Source: a virus
Taxonomy: Duplodnaviria; Heunggongvirae; Uroviricota; Caudoviricetes
DNA length: 20,241 nucleotides
IMG/VR virus record: IMGVR_UViG_2802429219_000017
Coordinates: 1-20,241 of that record
Reading direction: 5' to 3' (one strand)
The position numbers and the translations under genes are program-made. The notes under the pieces are model-generated. The model was not told where the DNA came from, ran no database searches, and was given only the letters and a program-made list of their open reading frames with translations. This document shows, piece by piece, positions 735-15,744 of this stretch. Every line of letters begins with the position of its first letter. The first letter of the stretch is position 1.

Positions 735-1811
735 TCAGAGCAGTAAGTACGTTTTTTCTCTCTCATCAAGATACATTTTTGTTGTCTTCTCCGATGTGTG
801 GCCAAGTAGACGCTGAGCAAATTCTTCTCCACATGTTTCTTTGTATAATCGTCCAGCCAGGCTTCTGATCTCGTGAAAAGTTGGTGGGTTTTCACTGAAC
901 TGGATACCTGTTAATTTTCTGGCTGCAACAAATTTTTTTGTCAGGCCGTCCGGGTGAATGCTTCCGTCAGGGCTGTTTTTTCTAATCCCGGCACTGATTA
1001 GAAAATCTCCCCGGCTTACCAGGCGGCACCGTTCAACTACTGTACCAAGACGTAGACCAGCGACAGGAAGGCTGAGTGACAGGGGGATAGCAATCATCAT
1101 TCCTGTCTTAATTTGCCTGATGTGGAGACGATCATCATAAATATCACTGAACCGCATATTCGTTATGTCTTCGCGACGTTGTCCTGTTACAAGGGCTAAG
1201 TCCATAGCTAATGGGAACCATGTCGGAAGTTGATCTGCTGCCTCCCTGATGCAGTTGTATGTCTTTAGTTTCAGCCGTTCTCTTGTAACTACTATTTTCG
1301 GTGCTCTTGTTGGCGTTACTGGATTTTGAGATATACGCCCTTCAACAATGGCTTCGCGGAACATATCAGATAACACAGAACGCATTGATCCTGCCATCGT
1401 GTTTTTCCCTCCTTCAATCCACAAATCAAGAAACTCGGCAATATGGCGAGTGGTTATTTCTGTCAGTAAAATCCCTCCTAATTTTTCTTTTATTGTTTCC
1501 AGTTGATTTCCCCGAATTTTATAAGTATTTCTGGACACTTTTCTCCTTATAAGAATCGTTTTGTAACGTTCAATCCAGTCTGCCATAGTAAATGAGTCGA
1601 ACCCTTTAAGTTTTTCAATTAAGGCAGCAGGAGAGTAGTTTTTGTATATATAATGATTTGCTTCAATTGCCTGCGCGATTGCATCTCTTCTTGAAATTTT
1701 ACCTAGTGTAAATTCTTCTTTCGTCAGAGGGTTGCGCCAGTAATATGCTTTGTCCCTCCTTCGATATGTTAAGTTCCTAGGCAAATTGGGATCGTATTTT
1801 TTCCGCTGCAT
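735..1811 (-). CDS. int: Phage tyrosine integrase, lambda Int family (358 aa)
   Basis: Translation aligns by eye with lambda Int along its length (N-terminal arm-binding region NLPRNLTYRRR, C-terminal ...PTFHEIRSLAGRLY...LLGH... catalytic region). Confidence 0.9.
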   Translation of the reverse strand: MQRKKYDPNLPRNLTYRRRDKAYYWRNPLTKEEFTLGKISRRDAIAQAIEANHYIYKNYSPAALIEKLKGFDSFTMADWIERYKTILIRRKVSRNTYKIRGNQLETIKEKLGGILLTEITTRHIAEFLDLWIEGGKNTMAGSMRSVLSDMFREAIVEGRISQNPVTPTRAPKIVVTRERLKLKTYNCIREAADQLPTWFPLAMDLALVTGQRREDITNMRFSDIYDDRLHIRQIKTGMMIAIPLSLSLPVAGLRLGTVVERCRLVSRGDFLISAGIRKNSPDGSIHPDGLTKKFVAARKLTGIQFSENPPTFHEIRSLAGRLYKETCGEEFAQRLLGHTSEKTTKMYLDEREKTYLLL

Positions 1812-2164: not shown

Positions 2165-2353
2165 TCACGAGGGCAGAAGTTTCTCGCAATTAAAATTTAT
2201 CAGCTTTACTTTCTGCTCTCTGGAAACGCCTGCTTCTTTTTTTCCCGAGAGCATTTTTTCGCATTCCGATTTGGTTAACTTTGTTTTTGAGTACCTTGTC
2301 CAGTTAGTAGGAGTGCCACCTTCCTTTTCAATAGTGGCGGTAACTTTATACAT
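2165..2353 (-). CDS. ydaC: YdaC-like small protein (Rac prophage family)
   Basis: MYKVTATIEKEGGTPTNWTRYSKTKLTKSECEKMLSGKK... resembles Rac YdaC. GGAGG lies 5 nt before the ATG at 2353; upstream in-frame starts at 2365 and 2425 are possible. Confidence 0.6.
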   Translation of the reverse strand: MYKVTATIEKEGGTPTNWTRYSKTKLTKSECEKMLSGKKEAGVSREQKVKLINFNCEKLLPS

Positions 2354-2603: not shown

Positions 2604-3692
2604 TCAGGAGCCGATATATTCTGGTTTCATATCTGTCAGTGTCGTTTTATACGCCTCATATAATTCACCCAGATGTGGCCGGGCAGCATTCAGCGTATTT
2701 TCCAGAGCAGTAAATTTTTGTTCTGCATCTGGATCACCGGATGAAGGAAGGTCATTTATCATCTTCTCGATACTGGCAATAGCATTGAGACGGTGATGAC
2801 GCCGAACCACTTTTCCTTTAAGCTCGGCAAAGAATTCGCCGATCTGGTTTTTCTGATCCTCTATCTCTTGGCGTAATGCAGTGGTTTCCTCAGTCGTGGC
2901 CGCGCTTTCGACACGCTGCCGGAATTCATCAATCCACGCTTCGTCAATACGCTGTTCGATGGTTTCTGTTCGCTGCTCGCTTACCTCGCTATAATTCTGT
3001 ACCGGCACAGGATTGATGATTTTTTCCTGTGGCTCTTCCAGTTCGTCCGGGGTATACACGCCCAGGATGACGTCAGGACAATAAAGGCGAGCCCAGTATT
3101 TCAACGCCAGATAGGCGAGCTGTTGTTTCGGGTTTGAGGTCCATAAAGGAGAATTACGCGTAATCACGCTGGAAAGAAACACCGGTTCTCCCCAGGTAAT
3201 CTCACTTTCACCGCGAAGAACTGCACCAACTCGAACTGAGAGACCATACTCATCTTCACTGGTCCAACATGGGATCGTTTCTTTTTTCTCATAGATTCCG
3301 CCTCCTTTGGCCGTTTTCTTAACGGTCTCCACTCGGGTGCGAGAGCATTTCTCCCAGTCTCCCTCGTACTTGTAATGGAAGCGGCCTACAATTGCACTTG
3401 AGCTAGAGATCACAGCGTTAACCAGTTGTGCTTCATAACCCAGAACTCCGTTTACCAGGTGTGTTTTCTGAGCCACAGCGTAGGGGTTCATGCCCCATTG
3501 CATGGCTTGCATGATGATTGCCATGCAGTCGGCAGGCTTTCCGCGAAGGTGATCGGGAACTGTGACGGTGGCCTGTGACATCAACCCGGCTACTTCCTGA
3601 AGTTGCGTCAACGCCTGAACGTTAAAAATAGTGTTACTGGCAGAAATGGTATTTGGTGTCTGCTCTGTCGTGATGATATTGGTATTTTGCAT
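2604..3692 (-). CDS. Single-strand annealing recombinase in the RecT position (divergent from K-12 RecT)
   Basis: Sits immediately downstream of recE with overlapping stop/start. GGAGAA SD favours the ATG at 3692 (MQNTNIIT...); the ORF is open to 3707. The RecT-family call rests on position and general resemblance only. Confidence 0.65.
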   Translation of the reverse strand: MQNTNIITTEQTPNTISASNTIFNVQALTQLQEVAGLMSQATVTVPDHLRGKPADCMAIIMQAMQWGMNPYAVAQKTHLVNGVLGYEAQLVNAVISSSSAIVGRFHYKYEGDWEKCSRTRVETVKKTAKGGGIYEKKETIPCWTSEDEYGLSVRVGAVLRGESEITWGEPVFLSSVITRNSPLWTSNPKQQLAYLALKYWARLYCPDVILGVYTPDELEEPQEKIINPVPVQNYSEVSEQRTETIEQRIDEAWIDEFRQRVESAATTEETTALRQEIEDQKNQIGEFFAELKGKVVRRHHRLNAIASIEKMINDLPSSGDPDAEQKFTALENTLNAARPHLGELYEAYKTTLTDMKPEYIGS

Positions 3693-3706
3693 GGTCAGGT
3701 TCTCCA

Positions 3707-6700
3707 TTAAGCCAGATGCAGTGCTTCAAGACGACGAAGATCAAAGTCGTTTAATTCGTCGGTATAACTTTCGGTTATCGGTGCTGGCCAATTGTTTGTC
3801 TCCAGGGCTTCGTTTATCTGGCGTAGCGTCCGGCGATATTCCTGTCGACCAAGTTCCAGGAGTTCCTGCGAGGCTTCCACGACAGCCACCCAGTGATAGC
3901 CAGCATCTTTGTTGACGAAGATCCAGAAAAATTTGTCCAGGTTTGCCACATCGCAATACATTGCGGCGCTGAGGTGATAATCACGCTCAATAATTTCACG
4001 GTGCAGGCGATCTTTAAGTCGTTCCTGCCGCACATAACCGAGGCTGACTGACTTCACGTCAGCGCAAATGCTTTCGTATGGCAGCCGGATTTCGATATCA
4101 GGACGGACCCTGATTTCCAGCCCGGTTTCTTCATCAAACCCGAAATAGCTGATTTCAGATTTGCGATCCGGGTGGTTGAGTAGCCTTGCTGCATCGGTAT
4201 TGTTTTGCAGTGCCGCGTGAATATTTTTTGCCTGTTCATACATATCCGGACTGATAAACGTTTTCCCGGCGTTTTCTTCTTGCTGGCGTTTTTGCCAGTC
4301 CTCCAGTGTCACCAGTTCCGGGCGAATTTTCCGTGCGATTTCGGTTAATTGCTCTTTTGTGCCACTGATGTTGTAAGGCAAAGATTTAGCACGTTCTTTT
4401 TTTGCCAGTTCTGGGTCTACAGTTTCAATTTGATCCAGAAGCTGCTCCCGTGCTCCACTGGTTTTCAACAGAGGAGGGAGGCTTGCGTTGTATTCTTTAA
4501 TACAGGCTTTCATTGCTGATGCTGTATGTTTTTCCCCCTCAGGAATACGCCGAAATTCCACCGGAAGCGAACCGTAAAGGATGCCTGTTTCTTCGGCCCC
4601 AGCACTTACAGACAGTGGCTGTATAAGAGTGCTGTTGTAGCTTTCGATCCACTCTTTCATCTGCTCTGGTGTCATCAGTGCTGGCAGACTGGCATTGTGT
4701 TTTTTAATGATGGCGATCAGTTCGTTAGAAGTAGTAACCACATATTCAGGAACCGGTACCGGAATGGCATATTCATCAGCGAATTTATCCGTTTCCAGAA
4801 CATAGCTGTGAATGATCCGCCCACGCAGCAGTGCATCACTTTCCTCGTTCGGAATAGTTCCGGCAATGTGCCGCCCGTGGTAATACATCAGGCTGATACG
4901 GGCATCCTTCAGCATCGTGCTGCTTATTCCGTTGGCGGAGTGATAAACCTCGTTCGGGAGGTTTTCATAGCGGCCTGGCTCGAAATATGACGGCCACATG
5001 ATTTCAGTTGCTACAGGAGCTGACGCTTCACCAGTTTCATCACTGCAATCACGATGCGGATCGCTGCCAGCATTCTCATTGTGCGGATGTTCAGCGCCTT
5101 CCATTTCCACCGGATCTTTTTCCTTAGCTTCAACCTGATTCTCTTCATCGAATGTTTCCTGGTATGTTGCGTCGCCCATTACCGCACCACAGTCAGGGCA
5201 GTTATCCCCGTCAGTCTGACCGCAGGCGGCGCAGACTTTTTCCGGTTCCTGTTGCGCTTCTGGTTCATTTTGTCGCGCATTTTGGCCGTTTTGTTCCGAT
5301 TTTCGGTCGTTCTGTTCCGTTTTTGGCTGATGCTGGTACACAGAATCGCGGGTCTGGATCCCCTTAACCCATTTCGGATCATTCGGGTCGCTAATCCCTT
5401 CAACAAATTCTCCGCGATAGGCAGCCAGTAATTTGTCTGCATCGACAGGATTTTTGGGCGGAATGTTTTTCCGGGCTTCATGGAGTTCTGCCCGCAGTTC
5501 TTGATATTTCGCATCAACAGAATTTACCTGTGACTGAGCATCCAGCGGCTGCGTGTCCTGATGATGTTCAGTTGCGTCCGGTTCCATTGTTTCAGCCTCT
5601 CCCTGTTCATCTGCCGTTGTTCCAGATGGTTGCGGTTTTTCTTCATCATCCTGTTTTCCTTCTTCTGTTACACGCTGCGGCATCGGGGCAGAGGAACGAC
5701 CGCAGGCAATATCCACGATTTCCGGATCAGGGTTGGCATGATCAGTTTCAGTCAGTACTTTGTTCAGATATTCAGTGACGTGCGCGGGGGTGACCTCGAT
5801 CCCAATTGGTGCTTCTTTCACGGACGCAACCACGATGGCGCGGGAATAATCCAGCCCGCCAGGCATGGTGATGAATTTGTCGCGGAAAACAGAAAAGGGC
5901 GGTTTATTTTCAGCGATAATTTCCTCAATGCGTTTAGCGTGTGCCGGATGAAGGTTATAAATGTCCACGTCCATTGAACGGGCCAGTACGCCAGTGGCTA
6001 CGTCGCGCGCCAGCGACGTCAGATCGTGGACGAAACCTTCGCCGCGATCGGTGAGGTTCCCGCCGCCAGCATTAGCACCGGAAGCCATGCGCGTGATGCG
6101 TGAAACACGATTCCCTTTTCGCCATTCTTTTGTCAGAAGACCGCGATCAATGTGTTCGGTATCCAGCCAGGCTGAAATGAAATTCTTAAATTCATAGGGC
6201 TGATGTTTTTTCGTGATAGAGAAAACCCCCTTAATTGCATCAGTCAGGCGGAGCAGGGCGGCATTATCCAGAGTTGTCGGTTCTGCCATGCCGCGTATGG
6301 CCAACAGCAGATTCTGGACATAGCTGTTTTCCTGATCCATCTCAAGAGCAGTAATGTGTTCGCGTTGTTCTCGGGTGGCATGATGCAGGTATTTCCGATC
6401 CCCGGCCGCATAGGTAAAAATGTGCAGAAGACGCTGTGTGAACCGCAAAGTGGCTACAGAGACTTCGCAATCCTGGCAATCCTCGTGGGCGTCTGCCTGC
6501 GTGTTTTCTTCCTGGCCTCCCGCCAGTTCTTTGGTTTCTTGAGCATTATCCTGGTGGTGAACGTCGTCTGGCGCTGCTCCCGGTTTTAGTTCCCAGGTCA
6601 TGGAGTCTTTGCTGAGTTGATAGCGTTCACTCCAGGTAAAATCGATCTCACCTTCAGGGGGCAGGTCATTAACGACAGGAAAATTCGTGGCAACAGCTTT

Positions 6701-6923: not shown

Positions 6924-6952
6924 GCCTGCACGTTGTGCAGGCTTTCTTTTTT
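6924..6952 (+). terminator. Plus-strand rho-independent terminator between recE and racC, antisense to the leftward operon
   Basis: GCCTGCAC-GTT-GTGCAGGC stem-loop (6924-6942) followed by TTTCTTTTTT (6943-6952). On the minus strand the run is A-rich, so it does not terminate the operon. Confidence 0.5.
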
Positions 6953-7227
6953 CAGATTTCACCTTTTAATTTAATTGCAATCAGAGTTGCCAGAAATCCG
7001 GCTTTTTTTTCTACGGGCAGATTCTTTCCGATGTGAACCAGACTCATTTTTGTGACACCTTCATCAAGTGTTTTTACGTTGCCTGATGGGCCGTCAATAT
7101 CAACCACAGTGAATGGGGTTTCTTTATTTTCTGTTTTAATCACGTAGCCAATACGCTTTCCTTCCAGATTAACCTCGTGAACAATGTCATCGGTAGTTAC
7201 AACAGTGACTTCATAATTGGTAATCAT
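6952..7227 (-). CDS. racC: RacC (91 aa)
   Basis: MITNYEVTVVTTDDIVHEVNLEGKRIGYVIKTENKETPFTVVDIDGPSGNVKTL... is near-identical to my memory of Rac RacC. Confidence 0.85.
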   Translation of the reverse strand: MITNYEVTVVTTDDIVHEVNLEGKRIGYVIKTENKETPFTVVDIDGPSGNVKTLDEGVTKMSLVHIGKNLPVEKKAGFLATLIAIKLKGEI

Positions 7228-7300: not shown

Positions 7301-7471
7301 TTAAAGTTCGTGTGCCATCTGGTCTTTTTCGGCACATATTTCACTACAATATTTTTTCATTTCCGTCGTTGGGATAACTCCACGCATGAAATGAAGTGGT
7401 TTTGTAATGCTTTTGCTTTTTTCAACTTCTTTATTGCAAAGGTGGTAAGCACATTTTATTTTCTTAGTCAT
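7301..7471 (-). CDS. ydaE: YdaE-like small zinc-binding protein (56 aa)
   Basis: Hand-translated from the minus strand (below the ORF-track size cutoff): [56 protein letters not shown]. Start overlaps the kilR stop (ATGGTGATGA). Cys pairs at both ends. Position matches Rac ydaE. Confidence 0.6.
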   Translation of the reverse strand: MTKKIKCAYHLCNKEVEKSKSITKPLHFMRGVIPTTEMKKYCSEICAEKDQMAHEL

Positions 7472-7692
7472 CACCATGACTCCGCCTTTACAGGTAAACC
7501 ATCACGACCGAGGAAGACTTTAATCATGCAGTCAGTAATGCATGTTTTTGTGGTCAGGTTACGAATATAAAGTTTTCGCTTTTTGATATTGTTTGCCGAG
7601 GCGATATATGTCCGACCTTCATGAAGAACATAATCGCCAGGGGTCACACACTGACGTGGTATTTCATCAGTTCCGAAGTGATGAGCAATCAT
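7471..7692 (-). CDS. kilR: KilR cell-division inhibitor (73 aa)
   Basis: [49 protein letters not shown]... matches my memory of Rac KilR. GGAG SD lies 6 nt before the ATG at 7692. Confidence 0.85.
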
Positions 7693-7858
7693 AATTATCT
7701 CCATTTTTACAAATGAATTTTGTCGATGCGGTGCCTGGTGCCTCCAGGTGACGTTAACCAGTTAACAATTAACGCCGGAGTATTTCACCCATAACTCTTA
7801 CGCTTTTAACTGTTCCGCGTGCGCTGAGCCGCATTCACCGCATCACAAAATTCACTTT

Positions 7859-7916
7859 AAAAAGGACGGACATCAGCCAGCAATGAAACTGATGCCGCCA
7901 AAAGGTAATCAACATG
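7859..7916 (-). ncRNA. Candidate DicF-like sRNA 3' module: minus-strand hairpin plus U-run upstream of kilR
   Basis: Minus strand reads ...UUUUGGCGGCAUCAGUUUCAUUGCUGGCUGAUGUCCGUCCUUUUU: an ~11-bp stem with two bulges followed by U5. It occupies the dicF position (immediately before the division inhibitor, in a dicA/dicC-controlled operon). Resemblance to DicF is from imperfect memory. Confidence 0.35.
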
Positions 7917-8149
7917 GGTTGTTGCAGCGGGGTTGTCACTCAAGCGTATGGTCAACCTGACAACCCGGTGCTCCACAGGGGGAGGGAGAATAGCACCCCT
8001 GCCATACTTACCGCCGCGCCATTTCGCGGATTGCCACAACCGGAAGCGCACGGTCGAAGAAATTTAACGACAAGCCTTCTAAGGGAAAAACATCACCTCC
8101 GTGCGCTTTCGTGTTGTGCGCCTGTCTTTTTTTACCACTTCAGGCTCGG

Positions 8150-8158
8150 TGGTATACT
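8150..8158 (+). promoter_or_regulatory. Extended -10 promoter element (TGgTATACT) for the downstream zinc-ribbon gene
   Basis: TG-n-TATACT at 8150-8158, about 33 nt upstream of the ATG at 8191, preceded by a T-run at 8124-8131. The -35 is weak. Confidence 0.4.
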
Positions 8159-8190
8159 GGAGTTCTCACACAACCAGTAAGGAATTTAGT

Positions 8191-8469
8191 ATGGTAATTA
8201 CTTCACTCTGCCCTGTTTGTTTGGCTACATCTTCTGTGCAGACTTTAGTTGAAGGGCAGCGCGAGTTTTTGAAAATTTATCATTGTCCAAATCATGGTAG
8301 TTTTGCCGTTCTTCCTGACCTTGATGTGAAATTGCAAGCAATGAGGTGTTCATCGGGTTATAAGATTGAACATTCGGAAGAGGCTATCAGGCTCGATGCA
8401 CGCTTACGTGAAAGCATACGCCCAGTAGATGGTCCTCAGTCGAAAATTCCAGTATTCCGCTCTGTCTAG
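8191..8469 (+). CDS. Small zinc-ribbon protein (92 aa), function unknown, in the sieB slot
   Basis: ORF MVITSLCPVCLATSSVQ...HCPNHGSF... with AAGGAA SD 6 nt upstream. CPxC...CPNH motif. Convergent to the leftward operon, the orientation of sieB in Rac. Confidence 0.6.
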   Translation: MVITSLCPVCLATSSVQTLVEGQREFLKIYHCPNHGSFAVLPDLDVKLQAMRCSSGYKIEHSEEAIRLDARLRESIRPVDGPQSKIPVFRSV

Positions 8470-8500
8470 TTTTCCCCTGACTGGCACCTTGTGGTGCCGG

Positions 8501-8800
8501 TCACATCTCCTCGATCATCGCATTTACTACGATTCGCAGATCTTCCAGTGCACTTTCAACTTTTAGATCATTTGCAGCTTCACTGACTTTTTTCATGGCA
8601 TCAGCCATTCTTTTAATCAGATCATTTGGAGTCTCTTTTGTGTTAGCAGAAACCCTGCTGGCCAGTTCCAGTGCGAGACGTGCATCTTTCGGTGTAATGC
8701 CTTTATCTTTTGCCATCTCTGCTGCCAGCTCAGAAAGCTCGGATGCAAGAGTGAGTACGCTTCTTCCCGTTTTTGACGGATATATATCGTGCGTGAACAT
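8501..8800 (-). CDS. First gene of the leftward early operon: 99-aa helical protein (YdfA/YdaF-YdaG-like position)
   Basis: ORF with AAGGAA SD, directly downstream of a sigma-70 promoter and operator-like palindromes. Acidic, helical composition. Homology to Qin YdfA/YdfB or Rac YdaF/YdaG is inferred from position only. Confidence 0.6.
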   Translation of the reverse strand: MFTHDIYPSKTGRSVLTLASELSELAAEMAKDKGITPKDARLALELASRVSANTKETPNDLIKRMADAMKKVSEAANDLKVESALEDLRIVVNAMIEEM

Positions 8801-8875
8801 TGTTTTCCTTTTCCCCTTAACGCCGGGTGGCAGAACTGTTTGCTGAGAACACCGTGCGGTGTCTTGATGGATTGT

Positions 8876-8904
8876 AATTTAGTTTTCTCATGAAAATTGG
8901 TCAA
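8876..8904 (-). promoter_or_regulatory. pL-like leftward early promoter (-35 TTGACC, 17-nt spacer, -10 TAAATT)
   Basis: On the minus strand: TTGACC (8899-8904), 17-nt spacer, TAAATT (8876-8881). An operator-like palindrome lies 10 bp upstream of the -35. Confidence 0.55.
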
Positions 8905-8913
8905 GCGTTTTTG

Positions 8914-8927
8914 GTGAGAAAACTCAA
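8914..8927. promoter_or_regulatory. Operator-like site OL (GTGAGAAAACTCAA), near-identical to the palindrome at OR
   Basis: 13/14 match to TTGAGAAAACTCAA at 9448-9461; the two copies flank the repressor gene. Confidence 0.55.
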
Positions 8928-8989
8928 TATTTAATGCAAAATAAAGCCAATACATTGAAATGTAAGGCTTTAAAATTTGTGAAGGGGGG

Positions 8990-9397
8990 TTATTGATGTT
9001 TGTTACGTTTGCGAGCTTCTAGTAGCTCGGTGAATAGGCGATTAAAATTCTCAACGCGGGCACGGAGTTCGCTGATTTGTGCTTGCTGCTCTGATTTTGG
9101 AAGTGCGCGATACAATCGCAACATCTCCAACTCATCTTCCGATAAGTCTAAGGCGCTGTTGAGTGCAACTGGTGGATCTGGTGTTTTATCCTCGTCACCA
9201 AACAGTATCCAAGTTGGTGAACATTGCAATACCTCAGCCAGGCGATGCAAATTTTGCCCGCGCGGGGCTGTATGGTCGCTTTCCCATAGTGAAATTGATG
9301 AGCCAGATACGCCAGCAGCTTTGCTTAAATCGTTTTGACTTAAACCAACCTGTTTGCGTCTTTCTCTAATTCGTTGACCTAAAGTTTTCTCGTTCAT
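8990..9397 (-). CDS. dicA: Prophage repressor, DicA-type XRE-family HTH protein (135 aa, no peptidase domain)
   Basis: HTH region LGQRIRERRKQVGLSQNDLSKAAGVS... and the ...LQCSPTWILFGDEDK... segment match my memory of Qin DicA, which is also 135 aa. Confidence 0.8.
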   Translation of the reverse strand: MNEKTLGQRIRERRKQVGLSQNDLSKAAGVSGSSISLWESDHTAPRGQNLHRLAEVLQCSPTWILFGDEDKTPDPPVALNSALDLSEDELEMLRLYRALPKSEQQAQISELRARVENFNRLFTELLEARKRNKHQ

Positions 9398-9418: not shown

Positions 9419-9448
9419 TTGACTTGAGATTCCTTGAGTGATTACTAT
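9419..9448 (+). promoter_or_regulatory. PR-like rightward early promoter (-35 TTGACT, -10 TACTAT) with TTGAG repeats
   Basis: TTGACT at 9419-9424, 17-18 nt spacer, TTACTA/TACTAT at 9442-9448. Direct TTGAG repeats sit in the spacer. Confidence 0.5.
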
Positions 9449-9461
9449 TGAGAAAACTCAA
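9448..9461. promoter_or_regulatory. Operator OR: perfect 14-bp palindrome TTGAGAAAACTCAA at the PR start site
   Basis: Perfect inverted repeat immediately downstream of the PR -10, just upstream of the cro-like SD. Confidence 0.6.
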
Positions 9462-9474
9462 CTTTGGAGGGGTG

Positions 9475-9702
9475 ATGTTTAAATCAGACGTAATTAATTT
9501 TTATGGGACGAAAGCCAAAGTAGCGAAAGCTGCTGGTGTTGATCCATCCGCTGTTTCTCAATGGGGGGAACTGGTTCCTGAAGGTCGCGCGATGCGCCTG
9601 CAAGAGGCATCCGGCGGGGAACTTCAGTATGACCCCAAAGTTTATGACGAATATCGTAAGGCAAAGCGGGCGGGGAAGGTGATTCATGAAAATCAGGCAT
9701 GA
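9475..9702 (+). CDS. dicC: Cro-like regulator, DicC-type (75 aa)
   Basis: MFKSDVINFYGTKAKVAKAAGVDPSAVSQWGELVPEGRAMRLQEASGGELQYDPKVYDEYRK... resembles DicC. GGAGGGG SD precedes the ATG at 9475; the track ORF begins with TTG at 9448. Confidence 0.7.
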   Translation: MFKSDVINFYGTKAKVAKAAGVDPSAVSQWGELVPEGRAMRLQEASGGELQYDPKVYDEYRKAKRAGKVIHENQA

Positions 9703-10111
9703 GCACATCGAATCAGTGCTGTTAGCCCTGGCAGCCGAAAAAGGGCAGGCGTGGGTCGCTAACGCAATTACTGAAGAATATCTGCGCCAGGGGGGGGGCG
9801 GCGAATTACCCCTGGTACCAGGCAAGGACTGGAACAATCAGCAGAATATCTATCACCGCTGGTTGAAAGGTGAAACGGAAGCGCAAAGGGAAAAAATTCA
9901 GAAACTGATCCCTGCAATTCTGGCAATCCTTCCGCGCGAGCTGCGCCACCGATTCAGCATCTTCGATACCCTGGAACGCCGTGCATTACTGGCGGCGCAG
10001 GAAGCGTTGAGTACGGCAATTGATGCGCATGATGATGCAGTCCAAGCCGTTTACCGGAAAGCGCATTTCAGCGGTGGTGGGTCGTCCGACGATTCTGCTG
10101 TTGTTCATTAA
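9686..10111 (+). CDS. ydaT: YdaT (CII-like fold), 141 aa
   Basis: MKIRHEHIESVLLALAAEKGQAWVANAITEEYLRQGGGG... is near-identical to my memory of Rac YdaT. AAGGTGA SD; overlaps the cro-like stop. Confidence 0.85.
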   Translation: MKIRHEHIESVLLALAAEKGQAWVANAITEEYLRQGGGGELPLVPGKDWNNQQNIYHRWLKGETEAQREKIQKLIPAILAILPRELRHRFSIFDTLERRALLAAQEALSTAIDAHDDAVQAVYRKAHFSGGGSSDDSAVVH

Positions 10112-15378: not shown

Positions 15379-15588
15379 AAACGATTTGCGGGAAAAGGAT
15401 AGTTAAGTAGAATTGCTGCGGGTGCTTGAGGCTATCTGTCTCAGGCATGAACACCAAAGGCAGATAGAGAAAAGCCCCAGTTAACATTACGCGTCCTGCA
15501 AGACGCTTAACATTAATCTGAGGCCAATTTCATGCTAGACACATGTAGGTTAGCCTCTTACGCGCCGAAAGGCAAGGAGAAGCAGGCT

Positions 15589-15744
15589 ATGAAGCAGCAA
15601 AAGGCGATGTTAATCGCCCTGATCGTCATCTGTTTAACCGTCATAGTGACGGCACTGGTAACGAGGAAAGACCTCTGCGAGGTACGAATCCGAACCGGGC
15701 AGACGGAGGTCGCTGTCTTCACAGCTTACGAACCTGAGGAGTAA
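15589..15744 (+). CDS. hok: Hok/Gef-family type I toxin (HokD/RelF-like, 51 aa)
   Basis: MKQQKAMLIALIVICLTVIVTALVTRKDLCEVRIRTGQTEVAVFTAYEPEE matches my memory of the Hok family. AAGGAGAAG SD. An in-frame upstream ATG at 15532 gives a mok-like leader. Confidence 0.85.
   Translation: MKQQKAMLIALIVICLTVIVTALVTRKDLCEVRIRTGQTEVAVFTAYEPEE

Follow-up and report, generated by a model that had tools for sequence, protein, structure and literature searches.

ORF99, promoter-proximal gene of a leftward early operon in a Rac-like prophage, and the variable first-gene slot behind its conserved leader

ORF99 is a gene on the minus strand of the virus record IMGVR_UViG_2802429219_000017 (Caudoviricetes), of which positions 1 to 20,241 were analysed. 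This whole stretch of 20,241 nucleotides (nt), referred to below as the window, is a Rac-like prophage. ORF99 is well supported, from sequence, as the promoter-proximal gene of a repressor-controlled leftward operon of a Rac/Qin-type prophage. Behind an invariant leader, at least five unrelated small cargos (DUF1391, YdaG/UBA-like, rac11/ORF99, a protein of 72 amino acids (aa), and others) are, to judge from the loci compared, swapped by recombination. The picture of these prophages is corrected accordingly: the first gene after the leftward early promoter (PL) is a recombination slot, not one diverging gene. The features of the window are listed in Table 1.

Description of the gene

An unrecognised 99-aa gene at 8501-8800 had been proposed in an earlier, sequence-only reading of the window. 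The open reading frame (ORF) listing confirms it, with an ATG start. The ribosome-binding site AGGA is separated from the ATG by a spacer of 5 nt. All database copies of the family are named 'hypothetical protein', no clear homology to a characterised protein is found, and no paper on the protein was found in the literature, by accession or by topic.

The ratio of non-synonymous to synonymous substitution rates (dN/dS, Nei-Gojobori) against orthologues is 0.10-0.24, indicating purifying selection. Compared with the copy in Salmonella locus L010, dS is 0.68 and dN 0.08; the N-terminal half alone gives dN 0.017 and dS 0.49 (dN/dS ~0.035). Because the frame is under purifying selection, ORF99 is evidently a genuine protein-coding gene. 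Relatives in Escherichia coli, Salmonella and Cronobacter with as little as 32% identity retain the frame, its length and its start. A chance, non-coding ORF would fit the shortness of the frame, the lack of a family match and the low confidence of the structure models, but is scarcely credible given the large excess of synonymous over non-synonymous changes, the conserved frame and the ribosome-binding site.

The product was described in the sequence-only reading as acidic and helical. It is acidic, mildly and not strongly so (pI 5.16; 17 D+E against 14 K+R; net charge -3). The helices are present in low-confidence models: both of two AlphaFold2 runs give four (~8/11-32, 37-52, 58-75, 79-98), with mean confidence scores (pLDDT) of 64 and 60. 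The models suggest a conserved N-terminal helical hairpin (residues ~8-52), carrying the near-invariant segment of the family N-terminal half, MAKDKGITPKDARLALELASRV, and a C-terminal hairpin (~57-99) that would be swappable.

Description of the promoter region and the operon

The region upstream of ORF99 contains a predicted PL-like promoter, operators, a terminator-like hairpin and a leader homologous to that of Qin. Alignment with the Qin dicA-ydfA spacer covers both the promoter and the 68-nt leader. The Qin promoter in this spacer (dicBF) is subject to repression by DicA and DicC (PMC5069750). The window repressor is 56% identical to K-12 DicA. Thirteen nucleotides are identical between the operator copies at 8915-8927 and 9449-9461. 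The terminator-like hairpin is predicted to separate the repressor transcript from the early-left operon. Displacement of RacR in K-12 Rac brings 40-70-fold derepression of the two genes in the equivalent slot, ydaF and ydaG, along with kilR, ydaE and racC (PMC11014345). Because these sequence signals are combined with homology to a characterised promoter, ORF99 is placed first in the leftward early operon, as had been proposed. Another ORF99-carrying prophage (E. coli TUM1881) has a relBE toxin-antitoxin pair (L002 6670-7148) lodged between its repressor gene and its leftward promoter region.

The order of the operon is PL, leader, ORF99, hairpin, ~800 untranslated nt, kilR, ydaE, racC, recE and recT. 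The untranslated stretch is antisense to the convergent gene and holds a DicF-like RNA with a terminator. The match to Rfam DicF (28.6 bits, E 9e-4) is below the gathering score of 48. Because this sub-threshold DicF-like RNA and its terminator precede kilR, the operon resembles dicBF with kilR in place of dicB. Also upstream of kilR, at 7685-7875 (minus strand), there is a sub-threshold STnc100-like match (39.5 bits). The hairpin at the 3' end of ORF99 has a folding energy of -21.2 kcal/mol on the plus strand (z -4.6) and -17.2 kcal/mol on the minus strand (z -2.6); a U-run is present on neither strand. It may serve as a 3'-end stabiliser or as a weak two-way terminator.

Description of the leader and the first-gene slot

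A leader of ~25 nt, GTTC(C/T)GCCACCCGGCGTTAAGGGGA (window 8812-8836), stands directly upstream of ORF99 (window and other E. coli), ydaG (K-12 Rac), ydfA (K-12 Qin) and rac11 (phage Rac-SA53). Because the same leader precedes all of these genes, the proposal that ORF99 occupies the slot of Rac ydaG/ydaF and Qin ydfA/B/C holds. The leader is also seen in the form GTTC(C/T)GC(C/T)ACCC(C)GGCGTTAAGGGGA, and occurs in the comparison loci L003 (~6460-6485), L004 (~5470-5497) and L005 (~4962-4990).

Homology between the slot variants ends exactly at the start codon. In a megablast search of 8400-9000 against 5426 complete E. coli genomes, a mosaic boundary falls at 8810-8841, in the leader. The segment 8400-8841, and with it the ORF99 clade, is matched in 7 of these 5426 genomes; most of the ~2490 other matching records appear, among the matches listed, to be limited to 8810-9000.

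The leader was found in at least 224 IMG/VR contigs, and the class figures are to be read as sample proportions. The first ORF behind it is of the DUF1391 (YdfA/YdaF) type in at least 143 of the 224, of the YdaG type in at least 62, of the rac11 type in at least 6 and of the ORF99 type in at least 2; other ORFs follow in at least 11, including the 72-aa protein (6). The sampled leader variants are too uniform for a covariation test. Because no stable fold is predicted for the leader RNA, the leader may serve in translation initiation or as a linker for recombination. K-12 YdaG (L003 6323-6457, 44 aa, 'uncharacterized') has a UBA_4 UBA-like domain above the Pfam gathering threshold (24.1 bits, E 3e-5).

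Description of the rac11/ORF99 family

The rac11/ORF99 family appears from these searches to be a very small orphan family. A word-indexed search of 5.8 billion proteins gives seven clusters, P0001-P0007 (E 1e-42 to 4e-20). Among 1.84 billion representatives, nine hits come from a full HMMER profile search, P0008 and P0009 among them. Two of the nine (one protein with Clp_N repeats, one with an unknown 38-aa repeat) are rejected as homologues, having only the helix-GITP-helix turn at <10 bits per repeat. Family loci number 1 among 185,579 species-representative genomes and 17 in IMG/VR. The sole deposited phage with a member is Rac-SA53.

Members are recognised by the motif MAK-x-x-G-(I/L)-(T/S)-P-(K/R)-(D/Q)-A-(R/K)-x-A-L together with full-length similarity, and by a position 190-390 bp after a same-strand repressor, ahead of a kil/recombination arm; ORF99 has all of these. 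P0005, P0008, P0009 and the chimera P0013 (32-55% identity) all lie 190-390 bp after a same-strand HTH_3 repressor. The repressors of these loci differ, and their recombination arms are of the RecET, ERF or YdfE/GamL type. The exception is P0007 on Salmonella enterica contigs (L006-L009), where the relative and a kil-ydaE-recE arm stand on the replication strand behind a Q-like antiterminator (PF03589). In Rac, unlike these loci, the arm runs leftward from the repressor.

P0005 combines the N-terminal half of ORF99 with another C-terminal half; P0013 combines a P0005-type C-terminal half with an unrelated N-terminal half. The C-terminal half is thus, on the pattern of these chimeras, exchanged by recombination.

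Rac11 of phage Rac-SA53 (ALP46914.1, 'hypothetical protein'; KU052037) is a true homologue of ORF99, with 44% identity over the full length (E 2e-21). Its gene likewise follows a dicA-type repressor and the same leader, and the same kilR-ydaE-racC-recE arm lies downstream. It differs in the C-terminal half and in its convergent neighbour, which is rac10 and not the zinc-ribbon protein.

Comparison with K-12 slot genes, lambda N and other early proteins

YdaG and YdaF of K-12 Rac and YdfA, YdfB and YdfC of K-12 Qin dicBF share with ORF99 the promoter-proximal slot and the leader. These small genes are under repressor control, and no function is known for them (PMC5069750, PMC11014345). They differ in being two or three short genes against one of 99 codons, and in having no sequence relationship to it.

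ORF99 had been suggested to be a single-ORF version of two small K-12 genes, that is, YdaG+YdaF or YdfA+YdfB. Slot and leader are the same, the summed length is similar (44+51 aa), and a stretch of 11-13 residues, GIT..(D/Q)A..AL, is alike in ORF99 (34-46) and YdaG (14-26). Alignment does not bear the suggestion out. Against YdaF, YdaG, YdfA, YdfB and YdfC, ORF99 aligns locally no better than shuffled sequences do (z -0.2 to +0.4), and the concatenated K-12 proteins give no alignment signal. Profile-profile comparison of the ORF99 and YdaG families (hhalign) gives a probability of 2.2% over 13 residues. YdaG is assigned to Pfam UBA_4, and YdaF/YdfA to DUF1391 (PF07151; YdaF 98 bits). In Pfam, ORF99 has no UBA match, and ORF99 and its eight relatives have no DUF1391 match. 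With the homology boundary at the start codon, a fusion is hardly to be entertained and is rejected.

ORF99 is, like lambda N, P22 gp24 and phage 21 N, the first leftward early gene, directly after PL and its operator OL. N proteins are disordered and basic, with an arginine-rich motif at the N-terminus, and their targets are nut sites made up of boxA and boxB. ORF99 is unlike lambda N in being acidic and predicted helical, with one R and one K in residues 1-30. No boxA-like match, with up to 2 mismatches, is present on the minus strand of 8801-8870, and the hairpin at 8848-8863 is not preceded by boxA. The earlier judgement that an N-type antiterminator is unlikely is therefore upheld by the lack of an arginine-rich N-terminus, the acidity, the predicted helices and the leader without boxA.

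An antitermination or anti-Rho factor of another type would have work to do here. Leftward transcription must pass the hairpin at 8478-8503, ~800 nt without leftward coding and the DicF-like terminator at 7869-7896 before reaching kilR and recET. The kilR gene of K-12 Rac is reportedly silenced by Rho, and in the Salmonella relatives the whole arm stands behind the Q-like antiterminator instead. Such a role is nevertheless improbable. ORF99 lacks an arginine-rich motif and its leader a boxA, it resembles none of N, Q, Psu and the other known families, and it is replaced by unrelated DUF1391, YdaG and 72-aa proteins, which is unlikely for an essential operon-specific factor. The Qin operon, moreover, expresses dicB from a foreign promoter, albeit with ydfABC still present (PMC5069750).

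T7 gene 0.3 (Ocr) and lambda Ral resemble ORF99 by analogy only: they are small, acidic, made first and dispensable, and their position varies between related phages. They have no sequence or fold similarity to it, and the charge of ORF99 is far below that of a DNA mimic.

Family, fold and structure searches

Scans of Pfam, PHROGs, NCBIfam and PADLOC with ORF99 and all nine family members give nothing below E 0.01. The best PADLOC match of ORF99 has E 0.02, and no PHROG is found for the nine members at E 0.01. At E up to 10, none of the nine finds a Pfam family of the helix-turn-helix (HTH), ribbon-helix-helix (RHH) or histone kind, and ORF99 finds no NCBIfam family of the HTH or RHH kind.

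The best PDB profile match, histone H4 alpha2-L2-alpha3, covers a 32-residue stretch and is non-significant (E 0.059-0.098); it is a motif resemblance only, and the 10 N-terminal residues, which include a proline, leave no room for alpha1. RHH, from a by-eye alignment to CopG, has no profile support, and the models (pLDDT 60-64) are without an N-terminal strand. The rac11/ORF99 family profile touches the Clp_N (PF02861) repeats of P0011 at <10 bits each, and ORF99 itself gives no Clp_N hit.

A small DNA-binding regulator, in which the helix, G-I-T-P turn and helix would make an HTH-, RHH- or histone-fold-like contact and tune early transcription, is unlikely. The segment LAAEMAKDKGITPKDARLAL has A5, G9 and I10 of the classical HTH pattern, and a PHROG 'CII-like activator' match (E 0.058) stands beside the histone match, but all supporting scores are non-significant, and the helix that would serve for recognition has many A, L and E residues. 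Because the net charge is -3 and no HTH or RHH family is matched, the protein does not resemble a DNA-binding one. Because unrelated repressors and operators accompany the gene, no conserved DNA target is evident. On the accessory-protein reading preferred below, ORF99 would not bind DNA and would not be essential for regulating the phage's own transcription.

Description of the convergent slot

The gene convergent with ORF99 encodes a zinc-ribbon-like protein, with a weak match to Zn_ribbon_HMPTM below the cutoff. In K-12 Rac this slot is held by sieB. A conserved promoter and leader belonging to the gene itself lie at ~8100-8190; the promoter (8131-8158) consists of TTTACC, 16 nt and TATACT with TG, followed by GTTCTCACACAACCAGTAAGGA. 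This upstream region is common to the unrelated rac10-like cargos and partly to sieB. The convergent locus is a second cassette of conserved signals and variable cargo, possibly for exclusion genes. The resulting two-slot architecture, in which a conserved leader faces a conserved convergent promoter (of SieB or alternatives), is the most useful by-product of the analysis.

The cargo pairs observed are ORF99 with Zn-ribbon (5), ORF99 with SieB (2), YdaG with SieB (42), YdaG with Zn-ribbon (1) and rac11 with rac10 (20). P0007 is found with a rac10-like gene or SieB; P0008 is found with and without rac10. The rac10-like ORF (74-80 aa, 48-69% identity) always converges on a rac11-family gene and overlaps its last 20-40 nt. 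The overlap is kept even where the rac11-family gene is only 32% identical to ORF99. For the rac10-like ORF no family is matched; the nearest is an IraP-like hit (E 0.01).

This arrangement would suit an antidote or modulator of the convergent, lysogen-expressed gene (Zn-ribbon here, rac10-like or SieB elsewhere), the early synthesis of which frees the phage from its own exclusion. In every case a convergent gene comes next, with a conserved promoter of its own, the overlapping rac10-like gene is retained in the distant members and present in 20 of 20 rac11-type loci, and K-12 has SieB in the same slot. The partners are not fixed, however, as the pairs above show, and linkage alone makes adjacent genes co-occur. 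The SieB antidote of P22 and lambda, Esc, has its coding sequence within sieB itself, not in a neighbouring gene. An antidote role of ORF99 is regarded as rather improbable.

Proposed role

Because the slot holds unrelated alternatives, and because varied repressors, recombinases and convergent neighbours occur with the family, an accessory role is the likeliest for ORF99; that the protein has neither the charge nor a profile match to be expected of a DNA-binding one speaks for the same role. It is tentatively proposed that the protein is dispensable and accessory, is produced as lytic growth begins, and attaches to a protein of the host or of a competing phage, for host takeover or counter-defence. 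The general remark in the sequence-only reading that such first genes are often host-takeover or regulatory factors makes a reasonable guess for ORF99. When the repressor is lifted, the leftward promoter would fire and ORF99 would be made first, at the onset of lytic growth. Of the two modelled helical hairpins, the N-terminal one, whose turn and helix (MAKxxGITPKDARLALELASRV) hardly vary, would present the functional surface and bind the host or rival-phage protein, and the C-terminal one would be exchangeable.

Several points weigh against this proposal. The low-confidence models match only generic four-helix bundles in fold searches, and a DNA contact of HTH, RHH or histone-like type could also suit the helix-G-I-T-P-helix turn. 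The 3'-overlapping rac10-like gene, kept by distant members at 48-69% identity, makes a functional pair possible. The polymorphism of the slot shows only that no single cargo is indispensable, not what any cargo does.

A wider and distinctly more doubtful proposal is that the whole rac11/ORF99 family acts in first-strike counter-defence or host takeover, its hairpin docking on a conserved host or rival-phage protein. The leader slot would then be a swap-in locus for early weapons, mirrored by the convergent exclusion slot (SieB, Zn-ribbon, rac10), and the two cassettes would form an offence/defence hot spot in Rac/Qin-type prophages.

Taken alone, ORF99 is one more uncharacterised small early accessory protein of a lambdoid prophage, and of modest interest. 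If the cargos act on the host or on defences, the leader would be a cheap handle for mining them from thousands of E. coli prophages, and the ORF99 family, whose 20-residue hairpin is very strongly conserved, would make a tractable test case.

Other features of the window

Table 1. Positions of features in the window, with the rac10-like ORFs of comparison loci in the last row.
Feature	Position	Strand	Basis or remark
358-aa ORF in integrase position	735-1811	-	placed by analogy with Rac and related loci
RalA antitoxin RNA, adjoins ralR	2169-2347	+	Rfam gathering-level match
367-aa ORF in recT position	2604-3707	-	placed by analogy with Rac and related loci
recE-like gene, 1048 aa	3707-6853	-	named from N-terminal sequence and position of annotated recE in L001/L002
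racC	6952-7227	-	
ydaE	7301-7477	-	
kilR	7471-7704	-	PHROG 294
DicF-like small RNA with intrinsic terminator (7869-7896), downstream of ORF99 and upstream of kilR	7864-7914	-	Rfam
92-aa zinc-ribbon-like protein, convergent neighbour of ORF99	8191..8469	+	RefSeq coding sequence in L001/L002
GC-rich hairpin between convergent genes, overlaps ORF99 stop codon	8478..8503	.	RNA fold
ORF99, member of the uncharacterised 'rac11' family	8501..8800	-	ORF, dN/dS, family alignments, predicted helices
Conserved leader GTTCTGCCACCCGGCGTTAAGGGGA (8812-8836) and AGGA ribosome-binding site (8806-8809)	8806..8836	-	junction of immunity and cargo modules
Small hairpin GACACC-GCAC-GGUGUU in the 5' untranslated region, common to Qin dicBF leader	8848..8863	-	RNA fold; alignment with Qin dicA-ydfA spacer
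Predicted leftward early promoter (PL-like), TTGACC 8904-8899, 17 nt, TAAATT 8881-8876	8876..8904	-	sigma-70-like consensus scan
Operator copy ATGAGAAAACTAAA, overlaps spacer and -10 of leftward promoter	8878..8891	-	2 mismatches to TTGAGAAAACTCAA; inverted repeat I1/I2
Operator copy GTGAGAAAACTCAA, just upstream of leftward promoter -35	8914..8927	.	match to rightward operator
Terminator-like hairpin (8942-8972), then U-run UUUAUUUU, 3' of repressor gene	8934..8972	-	RNA fold -11.3 kcal/mol, z -3.2
DicA-type repressor, 135 aa, HTH_3	8990..9397	-	Pfam HTH_3 1.2e-16
Palindromic operator TTGAGAAAACTCAA at rightward promoter (TTGACT 9419, TACTAT ending 9448)	9448..9461	.	
P22-Cro-like gene	9448/9475-9702	+	
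YdaT-like gene	9686-10111	+	
rac10-like ORFs	L005 5262-5495, L009 5268-5510, L028 6292-6516, L032 6262-6504, L037 5214-5456	-	

At the left end of the window, SraC/RyeA and SdsR/RyeB give Rfam gathering-level matches at 463-607; the prophage therefore abuts the ryeA/ryeB locus. A further gathering-level Rfam match, to the sok antitoxin RNA of the hok/sok module, lies in the right arm at 15420-15594.

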